Of a stretch of 48,751 bases of DNA, positions 375-45,694 are shown in pieces. The position numbers and the translations under genes are program-made. The stretch's first letter is position 1; each line of letters starts with the position of its first letter. This stretch comes from Candidatus Nanoarchaeia archaeon (lineage in GTDB: Archaea; Nanobdellota; Nanobdellia; Woesearchaeales; GW2011-AR4), in NCBI GenBank assembly GCA_035288925.1, contig DATDYS010000018.1, forward strand, positions 1 through 48,751, given 5' to 3'. The notes under the pieces are model-generated. The model did no database searches. It was given only the letters and a program-made list of their open reading frames with translations, and was not told the DNA's origin.

Positions 375-405
375 GCAAAAACCGTTTCGTCTTCTCGTGT
401 CATTT
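375..405 (-). repeat. 31-nt duplicate of the spt5 start region (29/31 identical to 278-308)
   Basis: gcaaaaaCCgtttcgtcttctcgtgtcattt (375-405) versus gcaaaaaTTgtttcgtcttctcgtgtcattt (278-308). The second copy starts a 25-aa ORF (403..326), MTREDETVFANLLQKALRKSMQCGI. Confidence 0.7.
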
Positions 406-510
406 TAAGTTTTAATTATTATGGTTTACGAACTAGCCATTTTCTTTTTAAGGAAAAACTAGAATTAAGCCATTGTATAGGCAACTTATATATAAAGGTT
501 TTTATATTGA

Positions 511-5339: not shown

Positions 5340-5777
5340 TTACCTTTCCCTTTTAACTCCCGGCTCTTTAATATATTTTTCAAAAATCGTAATCGCGTTC
5401 TTGAACAGCACCATTGACAGTAGCGCGCATTTCAGCCTCGCTGCGCTGACTGGAATGCCAAGCATTTCCAAAATATCCTCTTTCTTCAGCTTTTTTATTT
5501 CATCAATGCTTTTTCCTTTTACTTTCTCTGTCAGCATCGAAGCGCTTGACTGCGAAATTGCGCACCCGTGCCCGTAAATCTTAACATCGGCAATGTTTCT
5601 GCCATCATCTATCAAAAAATAAACATCAAGCTCGTCACCGCACAGCGGGTTTTTTTCATGATGGTGGACCGTTGCATTCATTATTTTCCCAAAATTCCTT
5701 GGGTTCTTGTAATGGTCCAAAATGTTTTCCTGGTACATCTGGTCTATTTCTTCCATTTTTATCGACTTAAACTCCAA
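5340..5777 (-). CDS. sufU: SufU/IscU-type scaffold or sulfur acceptor (NifU N-terminal fold)
   Basis: ILDHYKNPRNFG, NPLCGD and GHGCAISQSSASM. An alternative ATG at 5756 would avoid overlap with sufS. Confidence 0.8.
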   Translation of the reverse strand: MEFKSIKMEEIDQMYQENILDHYKNPRNFGKIMNATVHHHEKNPLCGDELDVYFLIDDGRNIADVKIYGHGCAISQSSASMLTEKVKGKSIDEIKKLKKEDILEMLGIPVSAARLKCALLSMVLFKNAITIFEKYIKEPGVKRER

Positions 5778-23226: not shown

Positions 23227-23264
23227 TAAGGTTTATATTTAGTTGGCTTATCTTTATTCTTATT

Positions 23265-23348
23265 GCCGACGTGGCACAATCTGGTACTGCGCTAGCCTTG
23301 AGAGCTTGTTCCCGCAAGGGTTTCTCGGTTCAAATCCGAGCGTCGGCG
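23265..23348 (+). tRNA. tRNA-Ser (anticodon UGA), class II with long variable arm, no encoded CCA
   Basis: Hand-folded. Acceptor stem gccgacg/cgtcggc. 3-bp D stem. Anticodon loop ct-TGA-ga. Variable arm ccc-gcaa-ggg. T arm ctcgg-ttcaaat-ccgag. Discriminator g. Confidence 0.85.
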
Positions 23349-23357
23349 TTTTTAAGT

Positions 23358-33963: not shown

Positions 33964-34095
33964 TTTGCACCAAATTAAGTTACATCATGGGGTGGATGGA
34001 AGGCAACTAAATAAAATTTAGTGCAAGTGGACATTCCCTCCCTTAGTAATTAATTTAAAATAAAGAATTACAAAAAATCGACTAAACAAATAAAA

Positions 34096-37474: not shown

Positions 37475-37669
37475 ATGGTTAAAATTCAAAAGCTTCCGTC
37501 CGGTCAGCTGGTGATTACCCTCCCCAAGCTTCTCGCAGAGTATGAGGGCCTGAAAAAGGGCATGGAGCTTGATTTCAAAAAGCACAAAGACGGATTCATT
37601 CTGGAGATAAAGCGCGGCAGTTCTGATTCTGATAATGTAAAAATCTCAAATAAAAAACGAAAAGGGTGA
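37475..37669 (+). CDS. AbrB/SpoVT-type DNA-binding domain protein
   Basis: KLPSGQLVITLPKLLAEYEGLKKGMELDF. Confidence 0.55.
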   Translation: MVKIQKLPSGQLVITLPKLLAEYEGLKKGMELDFKKHKDGFILEIKRGSSDSDNVKISNKKRKG

Positions 37670-39540: not shown

Positions 39541-39590
39541 GTTTAAAATAAATTTTAATAACCAATTCAAATAATTAATCGGCGAAAGTT

Positions 39591-39828
39591 ATCAGGGAGG
39601 GAACCCAAAGTTGCACCAGATTGGATTTATCCGCCCTGACTTGCGTGTGAGAACGGGTGACATGCGAGAGTTCGCTCTCGCTCACTCAGGTCACTCTTCG
39701 AACACGCTCACCGTTTAAGTACCCACCCCAAACCATTTAATAAAATCGTGCTCGATAAATAAAAGAAAAATATAAGGTGTGGGAACCATCTGGAATCGGT
39801 TGAGAGCAAGTGACAATGTTCCCCTGAT
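39591..39828 (+). ncRNA. Copy 1 of an unclassified block-conserved, self-complementary element (candidate structured RNA)
   Basis: It shares six ordered blocks with 44958-45124. The termini atcaggg/ccctgat are complementary. It contains an 83-nt hairpin insertion. The strand is assigned only by co-orientation with the downstream genes. Confidence 0.45.
39643..39707. repeat. 65-nt GC-rich extended hairpin module inserted in copy 1
   Basis: Nested stems gcgtgt/acacgc, gtgac/gtcac and gcgagag-ttcg-ctctcgc. The core is related to the hairpin at 41390-41454. Confidence 0.55.
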
Positions 39829-39958
39829 GAAAAAGTTAAGTAAAAAGCTAATAATTAATATTAAAAAACCGTTCAAAACCAAATATTAGACTAAAAATAT
39901 AAATTAAAATAATTAGATTTAAAAACATTAGAAATTAAATCAGGCAAAAAAGAGGAAA

Positions 39959-41365
39959 ATGGCAACAACTGAAGCTGATTTGAAGAAGCATGGCTTTGAA
40001 AAGATCGAGGAAAGCGAGGAGTTCAGAGGCTCCAAGATAAAAACTGGCTATCCTCAGCCGTCAAGGAGGTACAGGCTTCACTACGAGGGCTACAATATTT
40101 CCATCGAAGAGCCATATTTCTGGACGCTGCACTATCTAAGGTATTTCGGCGGGTTTCCGAGAATAGACAAGATAACTGACGTTTTTGCAGCCGCTGAGAA
40201 CTCCGCTTTTTTCGGGGCGTCGCAGCAGAGAATCGGGCTGCAGCAGGACAAGGTCAGCCAGTTTCTTGCGACAATCGGAAAAATGGTAAGGGAGCTCTTC
40301 CAGCTTGTGAGGGAGATGAGGATTCTTGACGAGAGGCTAAGCTATTACGCCGACAGCTATACGAACAGCCCAAGCGCGGAAAGCGCAGAAATAACATTAA
40401 AGGGAATCTGGGTTGATTTAGTCGAACAGGGCGCAAAAAATCCTGCTTCAGTTTATGGAATGGCGCGTGAAGTCCAGTTCACGACACTGCCGGACTTGTT
40501 TTTCAGCACGAATCCGAAAAAGCAGGAGGATGTTGATGTTGTTGTCGAAAAAGACAGGGGGCAGTTCAACCGAAAAGTCAAGGAAGTTTTGAAAAGAAAG
40601 CTGAGGTCTTTTTTGGCGTGGAAAGAGCATTCTTATGACGAGTTAAAAAACAGGAGAAAGTTCACACTTAAATATTTGCGGCAGCACTTTGAGATAATCA
40701 GGATGTACATGAATTGGGTAAAGCCGTACCTAAAAAATATACAAAGGCTGCAGCTGGACCAGTCGAAATCCGACACTCCTGATTTGATTGTTGCATTCGA
40801 AAGCTCTATGATTGAAGTCGAGATTCTTGCGGTCAAGCCCGGAAAAATAAACCAATGCATTCTGATGCATTATCTTTTCAGGACCCGCCCGGAAATGAAT
40901 TATTCACAGGAATATCAAAGAGGGCCTATACACCTTGGAAGGGTTGAAATTGATTTTAGGGCTTACGCGTGGAGCGACAAGGACATCGAGAATTACAAGA
41001 GATTAAGGGATCAGGAGGATTTCAAGCTGCTTGGGGTTGTTGACGGCTCTGTCAAGGCAGCGCTCGAAGCTCTTGGAGATGAGCTGATGAGATATCTAAA
41101 AGAAGCAGGGGAGGAGTTTGAAGAGAAAAAAGAATCTCCAAAGGAGAAATATAAGCAGAGCGGAACTTTCTTATCAGTGTTTCAGGGTTTTGCAGAATTG
41201 TTCACATCATTTAATGCAAAAAAAACTTCGCGGCCAAAAAAAGTTTCCCAGACGGACCTGATGAAAGACGCCCTCGCGAGAAAAGAAGCGGCAGACAAAG
41301 TGAAAAAAGTCATGTGGAACACTTACCATCATTTCAAGAAGCACCATGATATGCTGAACTGGTAA
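39959..41365 (+). CDS. Hypothetical 468-aa protein (orphan; Lys-rich C-terminal tail)
   Basis: ATG preceded by agagg. Long uninterrupted ORF in a G+C-richer island. No domain recognised. Confidence 0.6.
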   Translation: MATTEADLKKHGFEKIEESEEFRGSKIKTGYPQPSRRYRLHYEGYNISIEEPYFWTLHYLRYFGGFPRIDKITDVFAAAENSAFFGASQQRIGLQQDKVSQFLATIGKMVRELFQLVREMRILDERLSYYADSYTNSPSAESAEITLKGIWVDLVEQGAKNPASVYGMAREVQFTTLPDLFFSTNPKKQEDVDVVVEKDRGQFNRKVKEVLKRKLRSFLAWKEHSYDELKNRRKFTLKYLRQHFEIIRMYMNWVKPYLKNIQRLQLDQSKSDTPDLIVAFESSMIEVEILAVKPGKINQCILMHYLFRTRPEMNYSQEYQRGPIHLGRVEIDFRAYAWSDKDIENYKRLRDQEDFKLLGVVDGSVKAALEALGDELMRYLKEAGEEFEEKKESPKEKYKQSGTFLSVFQGFAELFTSFNAKKTSRPKKVSQTDLMKDALARKEAADKVKKVMWNTYHHFKKHHDMLNW

Positions 41366-41389
41366 AAGGGTTTCGCCCCTTTAGGACGA

Positions 41390-41454
41390 GAAACTTTTTA
41401 GTGACTTGTGAGCGAGTTCGCAACGAGCTCACTCGCATTTGACTAAAAAGTTTC
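41390..41454. repeat. 65-nt extended hairpin module downstream of ORF468
   Basis: 13-bp outer stem gaaactttttagt/actaaaaagtttc. The inner gtgac-ttgtgagcgagttcgcaacgagctcactc core resembles 39656-39690. Confidence 0.55.
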
Positions 41455-41526
41455 ATCAAAAATGGAGGCCTCGCATTCGCTCAGCCCCCAGAAATTTTAT
41501 ATTTTGATAATTTTATAAAAATGCCC

Positions 41527-41547
41527 CCACATGTCGCATGTGGTTTT
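41527..41547 (+). terminator. 7-bp hairpin plus T-run (terminator-like)
   Basis: ccacatg-tcg-catgtgg followed by tttt. Confidence 0.4.
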
Positions 41548-41711
41548 ACTTTGCAGAACAACAAAATTTTTGCCTCCGCTAAGACAGTGGTAAAGTTATA
41601 ATAGGGAAATCTGAATGATTCCTTATCTCGACATTTTCATTCAAAGTTATCTTAGAAAATTCTAACTATTGCATAATTTTTCAAAGTGTTCTACAGGGCG
41701 TTACATAGATT

Positions 41712-41993
41712 CTACTCCACCATTATATCAAGAATCTCTTCAAGTTCTCTTGTTATTTCTAATCCATGCACAGAGGTTGAACTATGGTGAGGTACAGCCT
41801 TATCTAAAATAGCAATCCTTTCCTCTGGAGTTAATCTTCTATACGCCTCGTTAACTGCATCATAGAGCTTCTTTACAGCTAAGTTTAAAGTAGAATCCTG
41901 CATAACCTGTGCACCCGCATTTAAAGCACAAGAGTGTGCATGAAAAATACTGGCATATTGCTCAAGAGATGGAATTGTGATTTCTTTTGCCAT
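41712..41993 (-). CDS. Hypothetical 93-aa protein (orphan)
   Basis: Clean ATG ORF, MAKEITIPSLEQYASIFHAHSCALNAG... No motif recognised. Confidence 0.4.
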   Translation of the reverse strand: MAKEITIPSLEQYASIFHAHSCALNAGAQVMQDSTLNLAVKKLYDAVNEAYRRLTPEERIAILDKAVPHHSSTSVHGLEITRELEEILDIMVE

Positions 41994-42132
41994 ATTTCAG
42001 AAATAACAAAAAAACAAGCCAACTATTTAAATTTATGCATGCTGTCAGTCTGGGCTATATAGATGGGGATTTCTATTCTATTGCCAAGTTATATAACCAA
42101 ATATTTAAATAATTGAATTCTTATACATAATT

Positions 42133-42672
42133 ATGAAAGCAATAGCAATATTTTCAGCGATATTCCTTGTTTTTTTTGTAGGGTGTGTTCTTCCAAATGA
42201 GCCAATCGCATGCACTGCAGATGCCAAATTATGCCCGGATGGAAGTGGGGTCGGAAGAGTAGGCCCGAACTGCGAATTTGCGCCTTGCCCAGAAACAAAC
42301 AGCACACAAACAGCATGCGAATCATCAGAATGCGGGCCGCAGTTAGGCATGCCCAACTACCTTTGCCCCGACGGAAAAACAACAGCTGGGCCAACGGGAA
42401 GATGCCTCAGGAATTCAGATGGGACGTGCGGATGGGAGGTGACCAGCTGCCCAGCTCCAAATCAAAACGAGCCACTAAAGCAGAATTACTGCACAGCAGG
42501 GCAAAGGCAGGGGGAAATGTGCATTGAATTATACCAGCCGGTCTGCGGATGGTTTGACCCTGCAAGAGTGCAATGCATAAGGTATCCATGCGCAAACACT
42601 TTCAGCAACAGCTGCTTTGCGTGCCACGATGATAAAATTCTTTACTGGACAGAAGGCGAATGTCCGAAATAA
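42133..42672 (+). CDS. Cys-rich secreted lipoprotein with C-terminal Kazal-like domain
   Basis: Signal peptide plus lipobox FFVGC. Repeated LCPDG...C modules. C-terminal CIELYQPVCG...CANTFSNSCFAC shows Kazal-type spacing. Confidence 0.6.
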   Translation: MKAIAIFSAIFLVFFVGCVLPNEPIACTADAKLCPDGSGVGRVGPNCEFAPCPETNSTQTACESSECGPQLGMPNYLCPDGKTTAGPTGRCLRNSDGTCGWEVTSCPAPNQNEPLKQNYCTAGQRQGEMCIELYQPVCGWFDPARVQCIRYPCANTFSNSCFACHDDKILYWTEGECPK

Positions 42673-42736
42673 AAATTTTAAAACCATTAACTATTTATAC
42701 AAGCTTCCCAATAAATTTCTAAAAAAGGTGTGTTAA

Positions 42737-44872
42737 ATGCAATTTAACAGCGGCTATTCTGTCCATCCGGCAGCGGATTATTTCAATGCCATGGACCAGC
42801 CCTACGGCGAAAAGCCGGCTTACGGCGGCGATTTGGGGATAAAAGACATCGGAATGAGCGTTCCAATGGGGATTTCCGCGGCAAATGTCGCAGGCATTTA
42901 TTCTAAAATAAGGATGGGCGCGGGGAACATTGAAATTCAGTTTCCCGGGTACAGAAGCGGCCAGAGAAATGCGCAGACTCCTGAAATGTTTGGCGAAGAC
43001 CAAAGGCAGGCAATCAGGGAACTGTCGATGGCCAATGAGGTCAAGTTCACAACCCACGCTTCTTTCCAATTGATGGGATTAATGGGACGCGATGAGAGAG
43101 GAAATTTCTCGCTTACCGGGGCAACGCAGGACCTGTTTGAATTGAAGAGGGCTATTGATTTTCAGGGCGACATGGGAGGCGGCTCCGTTGTAATCCATTC
43201 CGGGGAGTTTGAAAGGCCGATAACCGACATGTATCTTGATGACGAAACCGGAAAAATAAATCTGGCAAGAGACCCAAGCGGCAGATTGCTTTTCAAGCAG
43301 GCCCACACGCAGGAAGTGGACGCGCACTTTGAATTGCTGGATGACAGGACATCAGCAAAGATTGAAACTGTGCAGAAAAACAGGTTGGTTGCACACCCGG
43401 TATGGAGGCGTGCAGACCATGATTACGATTTCATCGATAACAAAGGAAATTCAGCCCATATAAAAAAAGGGGATTACATAGATTACGAGAACAGAAGGAT
43501 AATCAATCCCTATGATGCAAGAGAAGGCAGAGTTCCTGAATTTGATCAGAGTAAAAAAGAATTCAAAGTCAAGCTTAAAACGTTTGAAGAATTTGCAAGA
43601 GAAGCCGAGGAATACAACAAGTGGTTTGAGCAAAAGGAGCACAGAAAACCCAATTATTATGAGAAGAGGTATCCGGAAGAAGCATATGTCAAGGCAACCC
43701 TTGAGTCGCAGGAAGGAATTGCAAGGGGATGGAGTTTGCAGTATTCGAAAGATTCTCAGACATGGCTAAAGGCTTTAAAAAAACTGGAAGAATCAGAAAA
43801 ATATTATAAAGAATTAAAAGGTAAAATTCCGGTTGAGGAGCAATGGAAGATTATGAGGGAAGACAGGGAACTGCAGCAGGCAACACAGGGATTTGCAGGG
43901 CCTGAAATGGTGGATCCATTGGTATTAATAGAAAAAGCAAAGTTTGACGTTGCGAGAAGATTGGAATTTGACCGTTCAACCGCCGCTTCCCAGGAACAGC
44001 AAGCGGTAGACACAGCCGAGACAAAAAGGCATATTGTAACCCCAATCAAGCGCCTGGAGAAAGAGGGAATCAGATTGTATGCAGAAGCTGCAATTCACGC
44101 TTTGCAAAAAACAAAAGACCCAAACAATCCTGTTGTCCTTGCCGTTGAGCATATTTTCCCGGAAAGATTCGGCGGACATCCCGAAGAATTGAAATGGATA
44201 ATCAGAAAAACAAGGGAAAGAATGGTTGATATGCTTACAAAGCCGGAAATCACATACGGAGCCAGCATGGCGCCCGGCGAAGTGACAGCCGAAACTCTCC
44301 AGCCGAACCCTTATTATATGGGCATAAGCAAGGAAGAAGCAGCGAAACTGGCTGAACGCCACGTCAAGGCAACGATTGACACAGGCCATATTAACCTATG
44401 GAGAAAATACTGGCAGGATGACCCCCGCAAGACCCAAGAGCAAAATGATGTTGACTTTAACAAATGGGCAGTAAAAACAATTGAAAGCCTGGCCAAAGAC
44501 AAAATGGTAGGTAATGTTCATCTTGCGGACAATTATGGGTATCATGACGACCACCTTGCGCCCGGGCAGGGAAACAGCCCTGTAAAAGAAATCGTTTCAA
44601 CCATCAAAAAATATGGCTATGACCGGGCATTTACCGTAGAGCCGGGAGCTGACGCTTCAACTGACCTGAGCGATTTCCACGGGTTGATGAAAACATGGAA
44701 ATTCTTCGGCAGCCCGGTTTACGGGATGGGATTCAGGGGGGGCGGAGCGCCTCAGACATGGGGCGATGTGCAGTATTCATTCGCCGGGCAGAACAAGCCG
44801 CCTTACTATATCTTCGGCGCCTATGCGCCCTCAAACGACTGGACACTATGGAGCGCAGTTCCATTAGAATGA
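42737..44872 (+). CDS. Xylose-isomerase-like (AP endonuclease 2 family) TIM-barrel protein with ~300-aa internal insertion
   Basis: Barrel motifs GNIEIQF, GGSVVIHSGE, VVLAVEH, ATIDTGHINLW, NVHLADNYGYHDDHLAPGQG and AFTVEP. A charged helical insert spans about aa 160-465. Confidence 0.6.
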   Translation: MQFNSGYSVHPAADYFNAMDQPYGEKPAYGGDLGIKDIGMSVPMGISAANVAGIYSKIRMGAGNIEIQFPGYRSGQRNAQTPEMFGEDQRQAIRELSMANEVKFTTHASFQLMGLMGRDERGNFSLTGATQDLFELKRAIDFQGDMGGGSVVIHSGEFERPITDMYLDDETGKINLARDPSGRLLFKQAHTQEVDAHFELLDDRTSAKIETVQKNRLVAHPVWRRADHDYDFIDNKGNSAHIKKGDYIDYENRRIINPYDAREGRVPEFDQSKKEFKVKLKTFEEFAREAEEYNKWFEQKEHRKPNYYEKRYPEEAYVKATLESQEGIARGWSLQYSKDSQTWLKALKKLEESEKYYKELKGKIPVEEQWKIMREDRELQQATQGFAGPEMVDPLVLIEKAKFDVARRLEFDRSTAASQEQQAVDTAETKRHIVTPIKRLEKEGIRLYAEAAIHALQKTKDPNNPVVLAVEHIFPERFGGHPEELKWIIRKTRERMVDMLTKPEITYGASMAPGEVTAETLQPNPYYMGISKEEAAKLAERHVKATIDTGHINLWRKYWQDDPRKTQEQNDVDFNKWAVKTIESLAKDKMVGNVHLADNYGYHDDHLAPGQGNSPVKEIVSTIKKYGYDRAFTVEPGADASTDLSDFHGLMKTWKFFGSPVYGMGFRGGGAPQTWGDVQYSFAGQNKPPYYIFGAYAPSNDWTLWSAVPLE

Positions 44873-44957
44873 ATTCTTAAGAGAAATAATTATATAATTG
44901 TTATGAAATAGGACTTATTCTGCGGATAGTTTTGATTTAAATAATGAATTAAACTTA

Positions 44958-45124
44958 ATCAGGGAGGGAACTTGATTGTCGCACTTTAGGTTATTTATCC
45001 GCCCTCCACCCACCCAAAGATATAAACCAATCAAGTGCAACTGTTGCTCAATAAGAGGAACACAGAAATAAGGTGTGGGAACTATCAGCAATCGGTTGGG
45101 GGCAACAGGCAATGTTCCCCTGAT
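44958..45124 (+). ncRNA. Copy 2 (minimal, 167 nt) of the unclassified structured element
   Basis: It has the same six blocks as 39591-39828, no hairpin insertion, and its own 8-bp helix cttgattg/caatcaag. Confidence 0.45.
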
Positions 45125-45199
45125 AAAAAATTTAATAAAAAATATTTAAAACATTGAACATCAAAAATTAAATCAAAAAAATAAAAACTTACAATTAAA

Positions 45200-45694
45200 A
45201 TGATTGACAAAAAAGATCTTGCAAAGCTCTCCCCTGAAGAGAGGATAAAGCGGCTGAAGCAGCTGGAAGAGGAAAGAAAAAAAGACGCAGGTGAAATAGA
45301 GCAGCTAATAAAACAGTCAATGCAGGAATTAAAGACCGATAGGCTTGCAGAGGAAATTACACCGGAGCGGAAGGCTGTTGACATTTCAAGATTGTTTGAA
45401 AAAGAAAGCGGCGGCAGGCTCGAGAAAGCTGCAAGGCAGTCGGGCAGCGCAGCAGCGGGAAATTACCAGACCGTAACCCAGGTATACCAGGCTTATTCGC
45501 AGTTAAGGGAATTCTATGGCATAGTTGCGGGCGGAAGCAACCTAAGCCAAGACCAGCTTAGGGCAATAGGCCAGATAGGGGAAAAGCTGAACGTTGCCGA
45601 AAAATACATGACAGAGAGCGAGAGAACAGCATCAAAGCTCAATGCAAGCAAGGCAGTTCTGTATAAATTAAAAAAAGAGACGGGATTGGAATGA
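45200..45694 (+). CDS. Hypothetical 164-aa protein with coiled-coil-like N-terminus (orphan)
   Basis: Clean ATG, EERIKRLKQLEEERKKDAGEIEQLIKQ. No domain recognised. Confidence 0.5.
   Translation: MIDKKDLAKLSPEERIKRLKQLEEERKKDAGEIEQLIKQSMQELKTDRLAEEITPERKAVDISRLFEKESGGRLEKAARQSGSAAAGNYQTVTQVYQAYSQLREFYGIVAGGSNLSQDQLRAIGQIGEKLNVAEKYMTESERTASKLNASKAVLYKLKKETGLE

Follow-up and report, generated by a model that had tools for sequence, protein, structure and literature searches.

BOX repeats of pneumococci are modular, intergenic, species-restricted and structured, and are co-transcribed with neighbouring genes (PMC3049150, the source for RUP and SPRITE as well). Like REP/BIME, ERIC and Correia repeats, BOX (boxA-boxB-boxC) is a short non-coding unit with separable modules in varied combinations. 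Such repeats are intergenic, occur in one species or clade only, are nearly absent from relatives, and have predicted secondary structure and insertion sites polymorphic between strains. Prokaryotic MITEs are non-autonomous intergenic elements mobilised in trans (PMC11602168). Riboswitches and other cis-regulatory leaders represented in Rfam are located on the sense strand upstream of genes and combine conserved blocks with variable linkers. Nanoarchaeum equitans has split RNA genes, whose tRNA halves are joined via complementary GC-rich extensions.

The element described here was compared with all these systems. It shares with the BOX-type repeats every feature listed above, co-transcription with unrelated neighbouring genes being predicted in our case. 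It differs from them in being archaeal (DPANN), not bacterial, and in having no sequence similarity to them; its copy count is three in 49 kb, as counted in the window only. Its blocks are perfect between diverged paralogs, which is a stronger conservation than reported for selfish repeats, and no mobilising transposase with matching ends was found in the window or in the loci compared. We regard the element at 44958-45124 (copy 2) as a member of a lineage-restricted family of modular intergenic interspersed repeats from a groundwater Woesearchaeota/Nanoarchaeia (DPANN) clade, an explanation to which we give roughly an even chance. The repeat is probably transcribed as a structured RNA.

Positions refer to the window, i.e., the whole stretch of DNA that was analysed (48,751 nt). 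The designations L002 to L064 stand for the loci compared. The following features were distinguished in the window.

33966-34046, minus strand: third copy, a solitary 5' module (nhmmer: full-element model, E=2e-9; 5'-module model, E=3e-19).
39590-39828, plus strand: copy 1, full element with an 84-nt insert (covariance model R1, 140 bits).
39779-39889: paralog, in copy 1, of the candidate small ORF (36 aa).
44884-44900, plus strand: conserved AT box AAATAATTATATAATTG, directly after the stop codon of the 711-aa gene.
44958-45124, plus strand: copy 2, full element with the 5' module joined to the 3' module (covariance model R1, 174 bits; nhmmer E=4e-48).
44958-45041, plus strand: 5' module of copy 2; the same module is solitary at 33966-34046 (minus strand) of the window and at 403-492 (minus strand) of L011.
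45042-45124, plus strand: core of the 3' module of copy 2, found without the 5' module in L010/L024 and L019-L022.
45075-45149, plus strand: candidate small ORF in the 3' module with a GTG start and 24 codons, MGTISNRLGATGNVPLIKNLIKNI (coding support weak).
45125-45146, plus strand: conserved A-rich tail AAAAAAUUUAAUAAAAAAUAUU past the terminal stem (repeat D1 reaches 45142).

Copy 2 is 167 nt long, from a(44958)tcagggagggaac through caatgttcccctgat(45124), as read in the window sequence. All coordinates and counts given for it in the earlier note agree with this sequence. The blocks ccgccct (44999-45005), cca (45006-45008) and cccaccc (45009-45015) are located as claimed, cttgattg (44971-44978) and caatcaag (45028-45035) are exact reverse complements of each other, and a comparison of the 3' domains shows exactly 8 differences between copies 1 and 2. 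Copy 2 starts 85 nt past the stop codon of the 711-aa ORF (end 44872) and ends 75 nt short of the ATG of ORF164 (45200); copy 1 (end 39828) and copy 2 are direct repeats bracketing about 5.1 kb. Copy 2 is not the minimal version defining the core of the element, as had been proposed: the copies in L002 and L009 are 164 nt long. Where its two modules join, copy 2 has 9 extra nt (GUGC-AACUGUUGC-UC) and retains both junction motifs (GUGCAAC and UGUUGCUC), which are merged in the other copies.

The 5' module (about 85 nt) has the composition GGGAGGGAAC..UUGCAC..GCCCUCCACCCACCC..GUGCAA, i.e., a G-rich box, a UUGCAC/GUGCAA stem and a C-rich tract located between the strands of the stem. Its blocks in copy 2 are AUCAGGGAGGGAAC (44958-44971), UCGCAC (44979-44984), AUUUAUCCGCCCU-CCA-CCCACCC (44993-45015) and GUGCAAC (45035-45041). 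The 3' module (also about 85 nt) is GCUCRAUAAA-N17-GUGUGGGAAC..GUUCCCCUGAU with an A-rich tail; it consists of the AT box GCUCRAUAAA, a second G-rich box, a C-rich end and the tail. In copy 2 it is represented by UGUUGCUCAAUAAG (45042-45055), a 17-nt variable spacer, AUAAGGUGUGGGAAC (45068-45082), AAUCGGUUG (45090-45098) and CAAUGUUCCCCUGAU (45110-45124). The spacing from GCUC to GUGUGGGAAC is constant at 26-27 nt in all copies despite the differing sequence between them. The modules are fused at four loci (window copies 1 and 2, L002 and L009). The 5' module is solitary at two loci, the third window copy and L011, in both cases terminating just past GUGCAA, and the 3' module occurs without the 5' module at two others (L010/L024 and L019-22). 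L018 also carries the 3' module, at a point where its contig starts and is cut. Separable sub-units in differing combinations across loci, intergenic location at every copy, a narrow lineage and polymorphism between strains, all characteristic of modular interspersed repeats, were found for this element.

The spaced pattern GGTGTGGGAACN7AATCGGTTG (27 nt) occurs twice in the window vs. 0.00 occurrences expected. Without the insert of copy 1, copies 1 and 2 are 72% identical, and 72 nt of them fall within six perfect runs of 6-15 nt. The linkers between the invariant blocks of these two copies are fully diverged and variable in length, and this pattern points to constraint on specific blocks, as the earlier note had supposed. 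The 100-nt flanks of the two copies are 54-60% identical, which is the level of the AT-rich background. With flanks unrelated, a larger segmental duplication, one of the outcomes that would have spoken against a discrete RNA, is ruled out. Att-like direct repeats around a 5.1-kb island were rejected on the same grounds; in addition, the genes in between (ORF468, TIM-barrel protein) belong to the core set, and their order is conserved across Woesearchaeota. A second such outcome, that only two copies exist anywhere, is contradicted by homologs detected with nhmmer and the covariance model on contigs from closely related groundwater Woesearchaeota/Nanoarchaeia (DPANN). With homologs in relatives, the element is discrete and recurrent.

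Of 185,579 species genomes, a single one matched (a Nanoarchaeota MAG), and five matches came from JGI metagenomes. The clade sequence covered amounted to about 110 kb, with several loci chosen for containing the element, and the 48.7-kb window has three copies. A viral or mobile-element origin was rejected: two specific patterns had 0 matches in IMG/VR, and the 38 matches of a 15-mer were all due to chance according to nhmmer. Rfam 15 (4227 models) yielded no relevant match, either for the whole window at the gathering threshold or for both copies at E<=10; matches to RAGATH-20, SCARNA18 and PK-repBA (E about 5) were considered chance, and tRNA or tmRNA was excluded as the identity of the element. 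At the copy-2 site of L015, GUUGCAC..GUGCAAC with a GAAGCAAU-loop hairpin was suggestive by eye of a distant homolog and was rejected (nhmmer E=10, covariance model not significant).

The insert of copy 1 occupies 39638-39721, between CCGCCCU and CCCACCC, in place of cca. It had been described as an 83-nt hairpin at exactly this joint; the place is correct, and the size is 84 nt. The orthologous copy in L002 (6670-6833) is without the insert. The earlier note had taken the hairpin for the behaviour of a loop or junction in a folded RNA, against which stands the resemblance of the insert to a second palindrome in the window (41390-41454). Because of this resemblance, the insert is possibly a secondary insertion; judging by its sequence, it may be a separately inserted palindrome and not growth of the RNA's own helix. 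A BHB intron was rejected, since the junctions, inspected by eye with no tool run, lack the 3-nt-bulge/4-bp-helix geometry.

Contrary to the claim of two copies in the window, a third one, a 5' half, is present at 33966-34046 on the minus strand. Covariance model R1 scores it at 27 bits (E about 4e-5). The copy lies directly against the stop codon of NFACT-R_1, a convergent gene (end 33963), and is divergent from the CxxCxxCC gene (start 34096). In L002, where no third copy is present, these two genes are just 20 nt apart. The insertion brings about 25 nt of AT-rich upstream sequence of its own.

Presence of the element varies between strains with 92-95% identical flanking proteins. In L014 and L017, ORF468 is 94-95% identical, yet no element is located upstream, and the spacers are just 61-89 nt. 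L002 has copy 1 and lacks copy 2 and the third copy, while L019 has the 3' module only at the copy-2 site. L005, L006, L015, L063 and L064 are without the element and retain the order ORF470 - TIM-barrel gene - ORF165; relatives of 73-87% identity with the same gene order lack it as well. Homologs of ORF164 without the element upstream were found in L002, L005, L006, L018, L063 and L064, and the same was seen for ORF468 in L014, L017, L005, L006 and L015. The neighbours of the copies are unrelated: ORF468, ORF164, an HTH+CBS gene, an Ig-like protein gene, rpS6e/eIF2-gamma and NFACT/CxxCxxCC. Other copies precede the HTH-CBS gene and the Ig-like protein gene, and 5'-half copies lie antisense between the rpS6e/eIF2-gamma and NFACT/CxxCxxCC genes. 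ORF468, ORF164 and the 711-aa protein had no match in Pfam, NCBIfam or PDB beyond a C-terminal xylose-isomerase-like TIM barrel.

These distributions bear on the view of the earlier note that the element is a riboswitch-like cis-regulatory leader RNA of ORF164 and, for copy 1, of ORF468, with the blocks as the sensor and the variable joints as loops. Each copy that has a 3' module is in sense orientation and precedes a gene by 47-170 nt, as seen at four independent loci, and the conserved promoter-like box 44884-44900 is located upstream of copy 2. Also as in known leaders, variable linkers alternate with conserved blocks, one joint tolerates a large insertion, and the G-rich and C-rich boxes permit alternative, mutually exclusive pairings (P3 vs. 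P4, see below). However, strains of 94-95% identity have the same genes without the element, as do all more distant relatives, and the genes downstream are functionally unrelated. The 5'-half copies are antisense to both neighbours. Copy 1 is located upstream of the conserved proximal box of ORF468, ATTTAAAAAC, which is present in the element-free L014 too. The element matches 0 of the 4227 Rfam models, shows no significant covariation and has no link to a gene family or pathway; an association kept across species with genes that are orthologous or related in function, typical for riboswitches and leaders, was not seen. Being strain-variable, missing in syntenic distant relatives and positioned beside unrelated genes, the element, as judged by these comparisons, is not a conserved leader of ORF468 or ORF164. 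We consider a riboswitch-like leader quite unlikely.

L019 and L022 share the AT box 44884-44900 with the element-free L063 and L064; in L063 it is about 30 nt ahead of the ATG. This box likely represents the ancestral ORF164 promoter, and copy 2 would then be located between the promoter and the start codon. Modules are gained, lost, truncated and probably exchanged between copies in strains with 92-95% identical flanking proteins. For the modular repeat family that we favour, the following mode of action can be proposed. The repeat would be transcribed together with the neighbouring gene or just upstream of it, and its G-rich and C-rich boxes would pair to form a multi-stem junction, with stem P1 closing the element. 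If the repeat affects the gene at all, it would do so as a generic structured leader or insulator, influencing stability, translation or read-through; such action would resemble bacterial BOX/REP-type repeats and not a ligand- or regulon-specific riboswitch.

The stems proposed are P1 (AUCAGGG/CCCUGAU), P2 (GGAGGG/CCCUCC) and P3 (CCCAC/GUGGG) or the alternative P4 (GGGAAC/GUUCCC). Every one of them can form in each copy possessing both strands. P1 is changed on both sides in L002 (AUAAGGG/CCCUUAU vs. AUCAGGG/CCCUGAU), which is one clean compensatory event. The covariance-model alignment (about 7 independent sequences) showed no significant covariation: 92.7% of cells are paired, and both-sided changes are limited to two pairs, a number that 102 of 500 shuffles reach as well. 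Most paired blocks are invariant, so they are uninformative on pairing either way. The folding energy of copy 2 was unremarkable (z = -1.17; antisense strand -0.35), with z-scores of -1.78 for L002, -3.03 for L009 and -2.71 for copy 1. Support for RNA pairing is thin. The 8-bp helix cttgattg/caatcaag, which the earlier note had assigned to copy 2, is exact there but recurs only in copies sharing its 5' strand by descent (7 bp in L009, about 5 bp in L002) and is absent in copy 1 and both half copies; it is incompatible with the GCAC/GUGC pairing, which is conserved better. For the 3' module by itself, RNAalifold gave -8 kcal/mol and no covariation. An internal helix in this module was rejected, the variable triplets UGG/AGC/CAG vs. 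GUGA/CAGG/GUGG not pairing mutually. A variable hairpin after UUGCAC could be drawn in most copies, with energies no better than those of shuffles. The 3'-end CUGAUGA was not accepted as a hammerhead or C/D-box motif, as it is found in copy 1 and L009 only and not in copy 2, L002 or L011.

The modules might alternatively be small trans-acting RNA genes, in which the exposed C-rich tract (CCCUCCACCCACCC, anti-Shine-Dalgarno-like) or the G-rich boxes pair with mRNAs or rRNA, and solitary 5' and 3' modules could assemble in trans via the inter-module stems P1 and P3. Consistent with this, the 5' module is self-contained, occurs in either orientation to its neighbours and, in the window, has its own AT-rich upstream sequence. 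Both solitary 5' modules are followed after GUGCAA by a U/C-rich stretch, solitary modules retain the boxes able to pair with the other module, and the boxes are invariant, not covarying, as predicted for seed or target-pairing regions. However, the U/C-rich stretch is made up of the end of the convergent coding sequence, the full copies are not followed by a U run of the terminator type, the spacing between the 5' module and the TATA-like boxes ahead of it is not fixed, and the solitary 5' modules came from other contigs or organisms than the solitary 3' modules. We regard trans-acting RNA genes as unlikely.

With the split RNA genes of N. equitans the element has in common the DPANN lineage, the location of 5' and 3' parts at separate loci and the complementary GC-rich segments kept by the parts (here P1 and P3). 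It differs in that fused copies exist, that it is not a tRNA or any known RNA, and that its halves are known from DNA sequence alone. In a reading of this kind, the modules would be parts of a dedicated, undescribed DPANN RNA, whose invariant G-rich (Shine-Dalgarno-like) and C-rich (anti-Shine-Dalgarno-like) boxes recognise a fixed partner, for instance the ribosome, or each other. The RNA would function fused or assembled in trans from separately encoded halves, as a non-tRNA analogue of the split genes or as a portable translational control device moved between genes by the lineage. This reading seems to us highly unlikely. The perfectly conserved 9-15-nt blocks among diverged paralogs exceed the needs of a selfish repeat, which speaks against the repeat family that we favour, and hint at a specific partner, which may be a protein, rRNA or a ligand.

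DPANN archaea have small streamlined genomes, and very little is known of their non-coding RNA or repeat content. A strain-variable, modular, structured intergenic repeat would be among the first such families described in them. If transcribed, the repeat could serve as a marker for strain-level dynamics and as a handle on the reshuffling of leaders, promoters and mRNA structure in DPANN; because of its invariant sequence boxes, it would also offer a candidate RNA-partner interaction. If it is merely a selfish repeat, its value is mainly descriptive.

A function at the DNA level would take one of two forms. The 3' module could be a portable promoter cassette, in which the BRE/TATA-like GCUCRAUAAA is set a constant 27 nt apart from an initiator region, GGGAAC, and the G/C boxes serve as transcription-factor sites, or the element could be a decaying MITE with the ATCAGGG...CCCTGAT ends as transposase sites. 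The fixed spacing of the AT box and G box despite variable sequence, G/C boxes without significant covariation and a second TATA-like tail after the element are in line with the former. Resemblance to MITEs includes the size of about 160-240 nt, the non-coding and intergenic nature, presence/absence between strains, truncated derivatives and terminal inverted repeats. The latter are a perfect 7-bp ATCAGGG...CCCTGAT (11/14 with a gap) in copy 1, copy 2 and L009 and ATAAGGG...CCCTTAT in L002; across the window and about 250 kb of archaeal loci, these end motifs were seen in copies of the element only. Unlike MITEs, the element is conserved block-wise over the whole unit, with at least 6 internal blocks and not the ends alone, and the shared internal end point of the solitary 5' modules resembles a module boundary, not random decay. 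No autonomous partner IS was found in the window or loci. Target-site duplications were found neither at the third copy (window vs. L002), nor at copy 1 (vs. L014), nor at copy 2 (vs. L019/L063), where the spacers are AT-rich and partly unalignable, so that short ones could be missed. The both-sided change of the terminal repeat at the orthologous L002 site is what selection for pairing, not decay, predicts, and the sense strand folds better than the antisense one. On balance, a DNA-level role is distinctly improbable.

The modular repeat was also weighed against a small protein gene. Here the 3' module would encode 22-40 aa (MGTISNRLRATSNVPLIKKL...), starting at the GTG within GGTGTGGGAAC, and the 5' module would be a structured leader, with P3 sequestering the start region. 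All 8 copies keep the frame open (22-40 aa), while the other two frames reach stops; its first 17 codons are free of indels, and several changes are synonymous (ACC/ACT, CCC/CCT, CTG/CTT, AGC/AGT). Conservation extends past the 'end' of the element as K-K-L-x-K-K-L, the ORF in L019 stops 1 nt ahead of the ORF163 ATG, and the JGI annotation has one copy as a gene of 50 aa. Against coding, variable columns show no codon-position bias (7/7/11), and the ratio of synonymous to non-synonymous changes (43:140) is similar to that in another frame (41:114). No Shine-Dalgarno sequence is present at proper spacing, the C-termini and lengths vary freely, and K/N/I runs arise easily in the A-rich sequence that makes up the downstream open frame. 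A profile search of 5.8 billion proteins retrieved just the one JGI-called copy, by which a fragment of a larger protein family was rejected too. A small protein gene is very improbable in our view. The A-rich tail at 45125-45146 may represent a TATA/BRE-like box or else code for the Lys-rich end of a small ORF; its sequence AAAAARTTWARTAAA is common to copy 1, copy 2, L002, L011, L010, L018 and L019.

Copy 2 of the element, which precedes ORF164, had been placed 85 nt after the 711-aa ORF (a TIM-barrel gene) and 75 nt before ORF164, and both its 167-nt location and this spacing were confirmed. The ccgccct, cca and cccaccc blocks lie at 44999-45015, and the count of 8 differences from the 3' domain of copy 1 (upstream of ORF468) was right. 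Without its insert, copy 1 was 72% identical to copy 2, including six perfect runs of 6–15 nt that total 72 nt. The 27-nt spaced pattern of the 3' domain occurred twice in a scan of the window vs. 0.00 expected. The 100-nt flanks of the two copies were 54–60% identical, the level of the AT-rich background. The likeness of the copies is far above chance.

No Rfam model matched the element. Exact-pattern scans, nhmmer profiles and R1, a covariance model of the element, agreed on the following set of copies in the window and in loci of related archaea (L numbers).

Copies of the element
Window 44958 (atcagggagggaac) to 45124 (caatgttcccctgat), + strand: copy 2, 167 nt, read from the window sequence
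Window 39590-39828, + strand: copy 1, full (pattern scans, nhmmer, R1)
L002 6670-6833: full, ortholog of copy 1 without the insert
L009 1336-1499, - strand: full
Window 33966-34046, - strand: 5' half only, ending directly after GUGCAA
L011 403-492, - strand: 5' half only, ending directly after GUGCAA
L010/L024: 3' half only
L019-L022: 3' half only, at the site orthologous to copy 2
L018: 3' module upstream of an ORF468 homolog, where the contig is cut

The element is thus new to Rfam, real and recurrent. The window holds a partial third copy (33966-34046) besides the two of the earlier note; an R1 search with filters off found no further copies there. Since the L002 and L009 copies are only 164 nt long, copy 2 is not the minimal version that defines the core. 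The existence of full, 5'-half-only and 3'-half-only copies shows that the element consists of two joined modules. The 5' module reads AUCAGGGAGGGAAC, linker, UUGCAC, variable hairpin region, (U)UGCCCU-CCA-CCCACCC, linker, GUGCAA. The 3' module reads G(U)GCUCRAUAAA, 17 variable nt, GUGUGGGAAC, about 31 nt with AUC..UCGGUUG..GCAA, CAAUGUUCCCCUGAU, AAAAARUUWARUAAA. Copy 2 retains both junction motifs (GUGCAAC-UG-UUGCUC); fusion of the two to GUGCUC leaves the junction of copy 1, L002 and L009 shorter by 9 nt.

The G-rich boxes (GGGAGGG, GGUGUGGG) and C-rich boxes (GCCCUCC, CCCACCC, UUCCCCU) permit four pairings, which can form in every copy having both strands.

Predicted pairings
P1: AUCAGGG/CCCUGAU, terminal stem
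P2: GGAGGG/CCCUCC
P3: CCCAC/GUGGG
P4: GGGAAC/GUUCCC, alternative to P3

RNAalifold recovered P1, a short P2 and P3. The strongest individual indication of RNA structure came from L002, where the terminal stem at the orthologous site is altered on both sides to AUAAGGG/CCCUUAU. Folding z-scores were -1.17 for copy 2 (-0.35 for its antisense strand), -1.78 for L002, -3.03 for L009 and -2.71 for copy 1, to which the insert contributes. In a model-guided alignment of 10 matches, 92.7% of cells were paired and both-sided change was seen in 2 pairs only, a number matched by 102 of 500 shuffles; most paired columns were invariant. These results make an RNA structure plausible without proving it. The 8-bp helix described for copy 2 (cttgattg, 44971-78, with caatcaag, 45028-35) is exactly complementary. 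L009 has 7 bp of it and L002 a part, but copy 1 and both half copies lack it. The helix moreover crosses the GCAC/GUGC pairing, for which the solitary 5' modules have 6 perfect bp.

Conservation extending past the terminal stem would also be accounted for if the 3' module encoded a small protein, a minor rival reading. A frame opening at the GTG in GGTGTGGGAAC is present in 8/8 copies and spans 22–40 codons (MGTISNRLRATSNVPLIKKL...).

Candidate small ORF
Window 45075-45149 and 39779-39889
Also in L010, L011, L018, L019, L002 and L009

However, variable columns were distributed 7/7/11 over the codon positions, the synonymous to non-synonymous ratio (43:140) was no better than that of another frame (41:114), and a profile search of 5.8 billion proteins found just one copy, called as a 50-aa gene. 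The coding signal of this candidate is weak.

The insert in copy 1 measures 84 nt (39638-39721) rather than 83 nt and is absent from the L002 ortholog. It forms a long hairpin with the tip GCGAGAG-UUCG-CUCUCGC. Just downstream of ORF468, window 41390-41454 forms a near-perfect palindrome whose 31-nt arms are 3 nt apart, and the two have GUGAC.UG.GA.GAGUUCGC...GCUCACUC in common. Their local alignment scored 25 (shuffles: mean 13.6, sd 2.1; 1/500 reached 33). The insert may have come in secondarily as a different small palindromic repeat, and together with the palindrome it may represent a second family of such repeats. As a possibly separate repeat, the insert speaks less strongly for the folded-RNA loop it had been taken for, although the joint does tolerate interruption. 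Additional GC-rich hairpins occur at window 41460-41550.

Copies come and go between close relatives. In L014 and L017, with ORF468 94–95% identical, the 61–89 nt upstream of this gene contain no element, even though L014 has the same upstream Na+/H+ exchanger gene as the window. L002 has copy 1 but neither copy 2 nor the third one. The third copy sits between the stop of the NFACT-R_1 gene and the start of the CxxCxxCC gene, a site empty in the 95%-identical L002 (20 nt between the genes vs. 133 nt in the window). L019 has the 3' module alone at the copy 2 site, with a clearly homologous flank. Relatives at 73–87% identity (L005, L006, L015, L063, L064) lack the element, and among 185,579 species genomes the only match was a groundwater Nanoarchaeota MAG. 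At the copy 2 site of L015 (87% identity), positions 5420-5545 hold a different structured stretch: a GUUGCAC-19 nt-GUGCAAC hairpin, a GGCACCCA..UGGGUCGCC hairpin with GAAGCAAU in its loop, then CCUGAU. It looks remotely like the element, but neither nhmmer nor the covariance model gave significance.

Genes beside the copies are unrelated: ORF468, ORF164, an HTH+CBS protein adjoining SAM synthetase and an Ig-like protein, with rpS6e/eIF2-gamma and NFACT/CxxCxxCC beside half copies. All 3'-module copies, at 4 independent loci, lie sense-upstream of a gene by 47–170 nt; the two solitary 5' modules run antisense to the genes on either side and adjoin the convergent gene's stop codon. This distribution argues against a gene-specific regulator. 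Modular, gained, lost and truncated between near-identical strains, confined to a narrow clade and with unrelated genes as neighbours, the element behaves like an interspersed repeat. Among known kinds, it comes closest to bacterial intergenic repeats of modular, structured type. Pneumococcal BOX elements, for example, are species-restricted, transcribed together with adjacent genes and thought to work via secondary structure (PMC3049150). Inverted ends and polymorphism are shared with MITEs (PMC11602168); unlike these, the element has no target-site duplications or partner transposase in the data at hand.

The relation of the copies to their genes differs. A AAATAATTATATAATTG box directly after the TIM-barrel gene stop (44884-44900) is kept in L019/L022 and in the element-free L063/L064; in L063 about 30 nt separate it from the ATG of ORF165, the counterpart of ORF164, and it fills almost the entire spacer. 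This box is probably the ancestral ORF164 promoter, in which case copy 2 was inserted between promoter and start codon, and its transcription as a leader is likely. Copy 1, in contrast, is followed downstream by a proximal ATTTAAAAAC box some 45 nt ahead of the ORF468 ATG; L014 has this box too. Several boxes of 9–15 nt are perfectly conserved between paralogs amid completely diverged linkers, which does not fit a purely selfish repeat. This would allow for a specific partner, and for the element acting as a trans-acting or split RNA or as a portable leader/promoter cassette.

The 5.1 kb between copies 1 and 2 was ruled out as an island or segmental duplication: it is core genome, as the order ORF470 (counterpart of ORF468), 720-aa protein (C-terminal xylose-isomerase-like TIM barrel), ORF165 is group-wide. 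ORF468 has more than 1,700 homologs (73–95% identity), the named ones all from Woesearchaeota or 'Nanoarchaeia' MAGs; ORF468 matches nothing in Pfam, NCBIfam or PDB, and no homolog has a Pfam domain. The trio is a core DPANN gene cluster with no assigned function.

Conserved trio in the window
39959-41365: ORF468
42737-44872: TIM-barrel protein (711 aa; 720 aa in the group)
45200-45694: ORF164, coiled-coil protein (165 aa in the group)

The ORF468/TIM-barrel spacer and the spacer preceding ORF164 are strain-specific cargo hot spots (window 41366-42736; L002 8461-10938; L018 1672-3443 and 6062-7655); the genes are directly adjacent in more distant relatives. Cargo includes ParE-type toxin genes, a Laminin_G_3 protein, a Sigma54_DBD-like protein and a Cys-rich secreted protein (window 42133-42672). 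The sole Rfam or ARAGORN match in the window was a tRNA-Ser (UGA anticodon; 23264-23349, + strand). Two conserved small ORFs, each about 50 aa long (one MVKVQKLPSGQLVITIPK..., the second acidic; window 37475-37669, L005 6607-6911, L006 6610-6913) lie 5' of ORF470 in distant relatives and 5' of the inserted Na+/H+ exchanger gene in the window's lineage; they may be a pair of AbrB/SpoVT-like small regulators.
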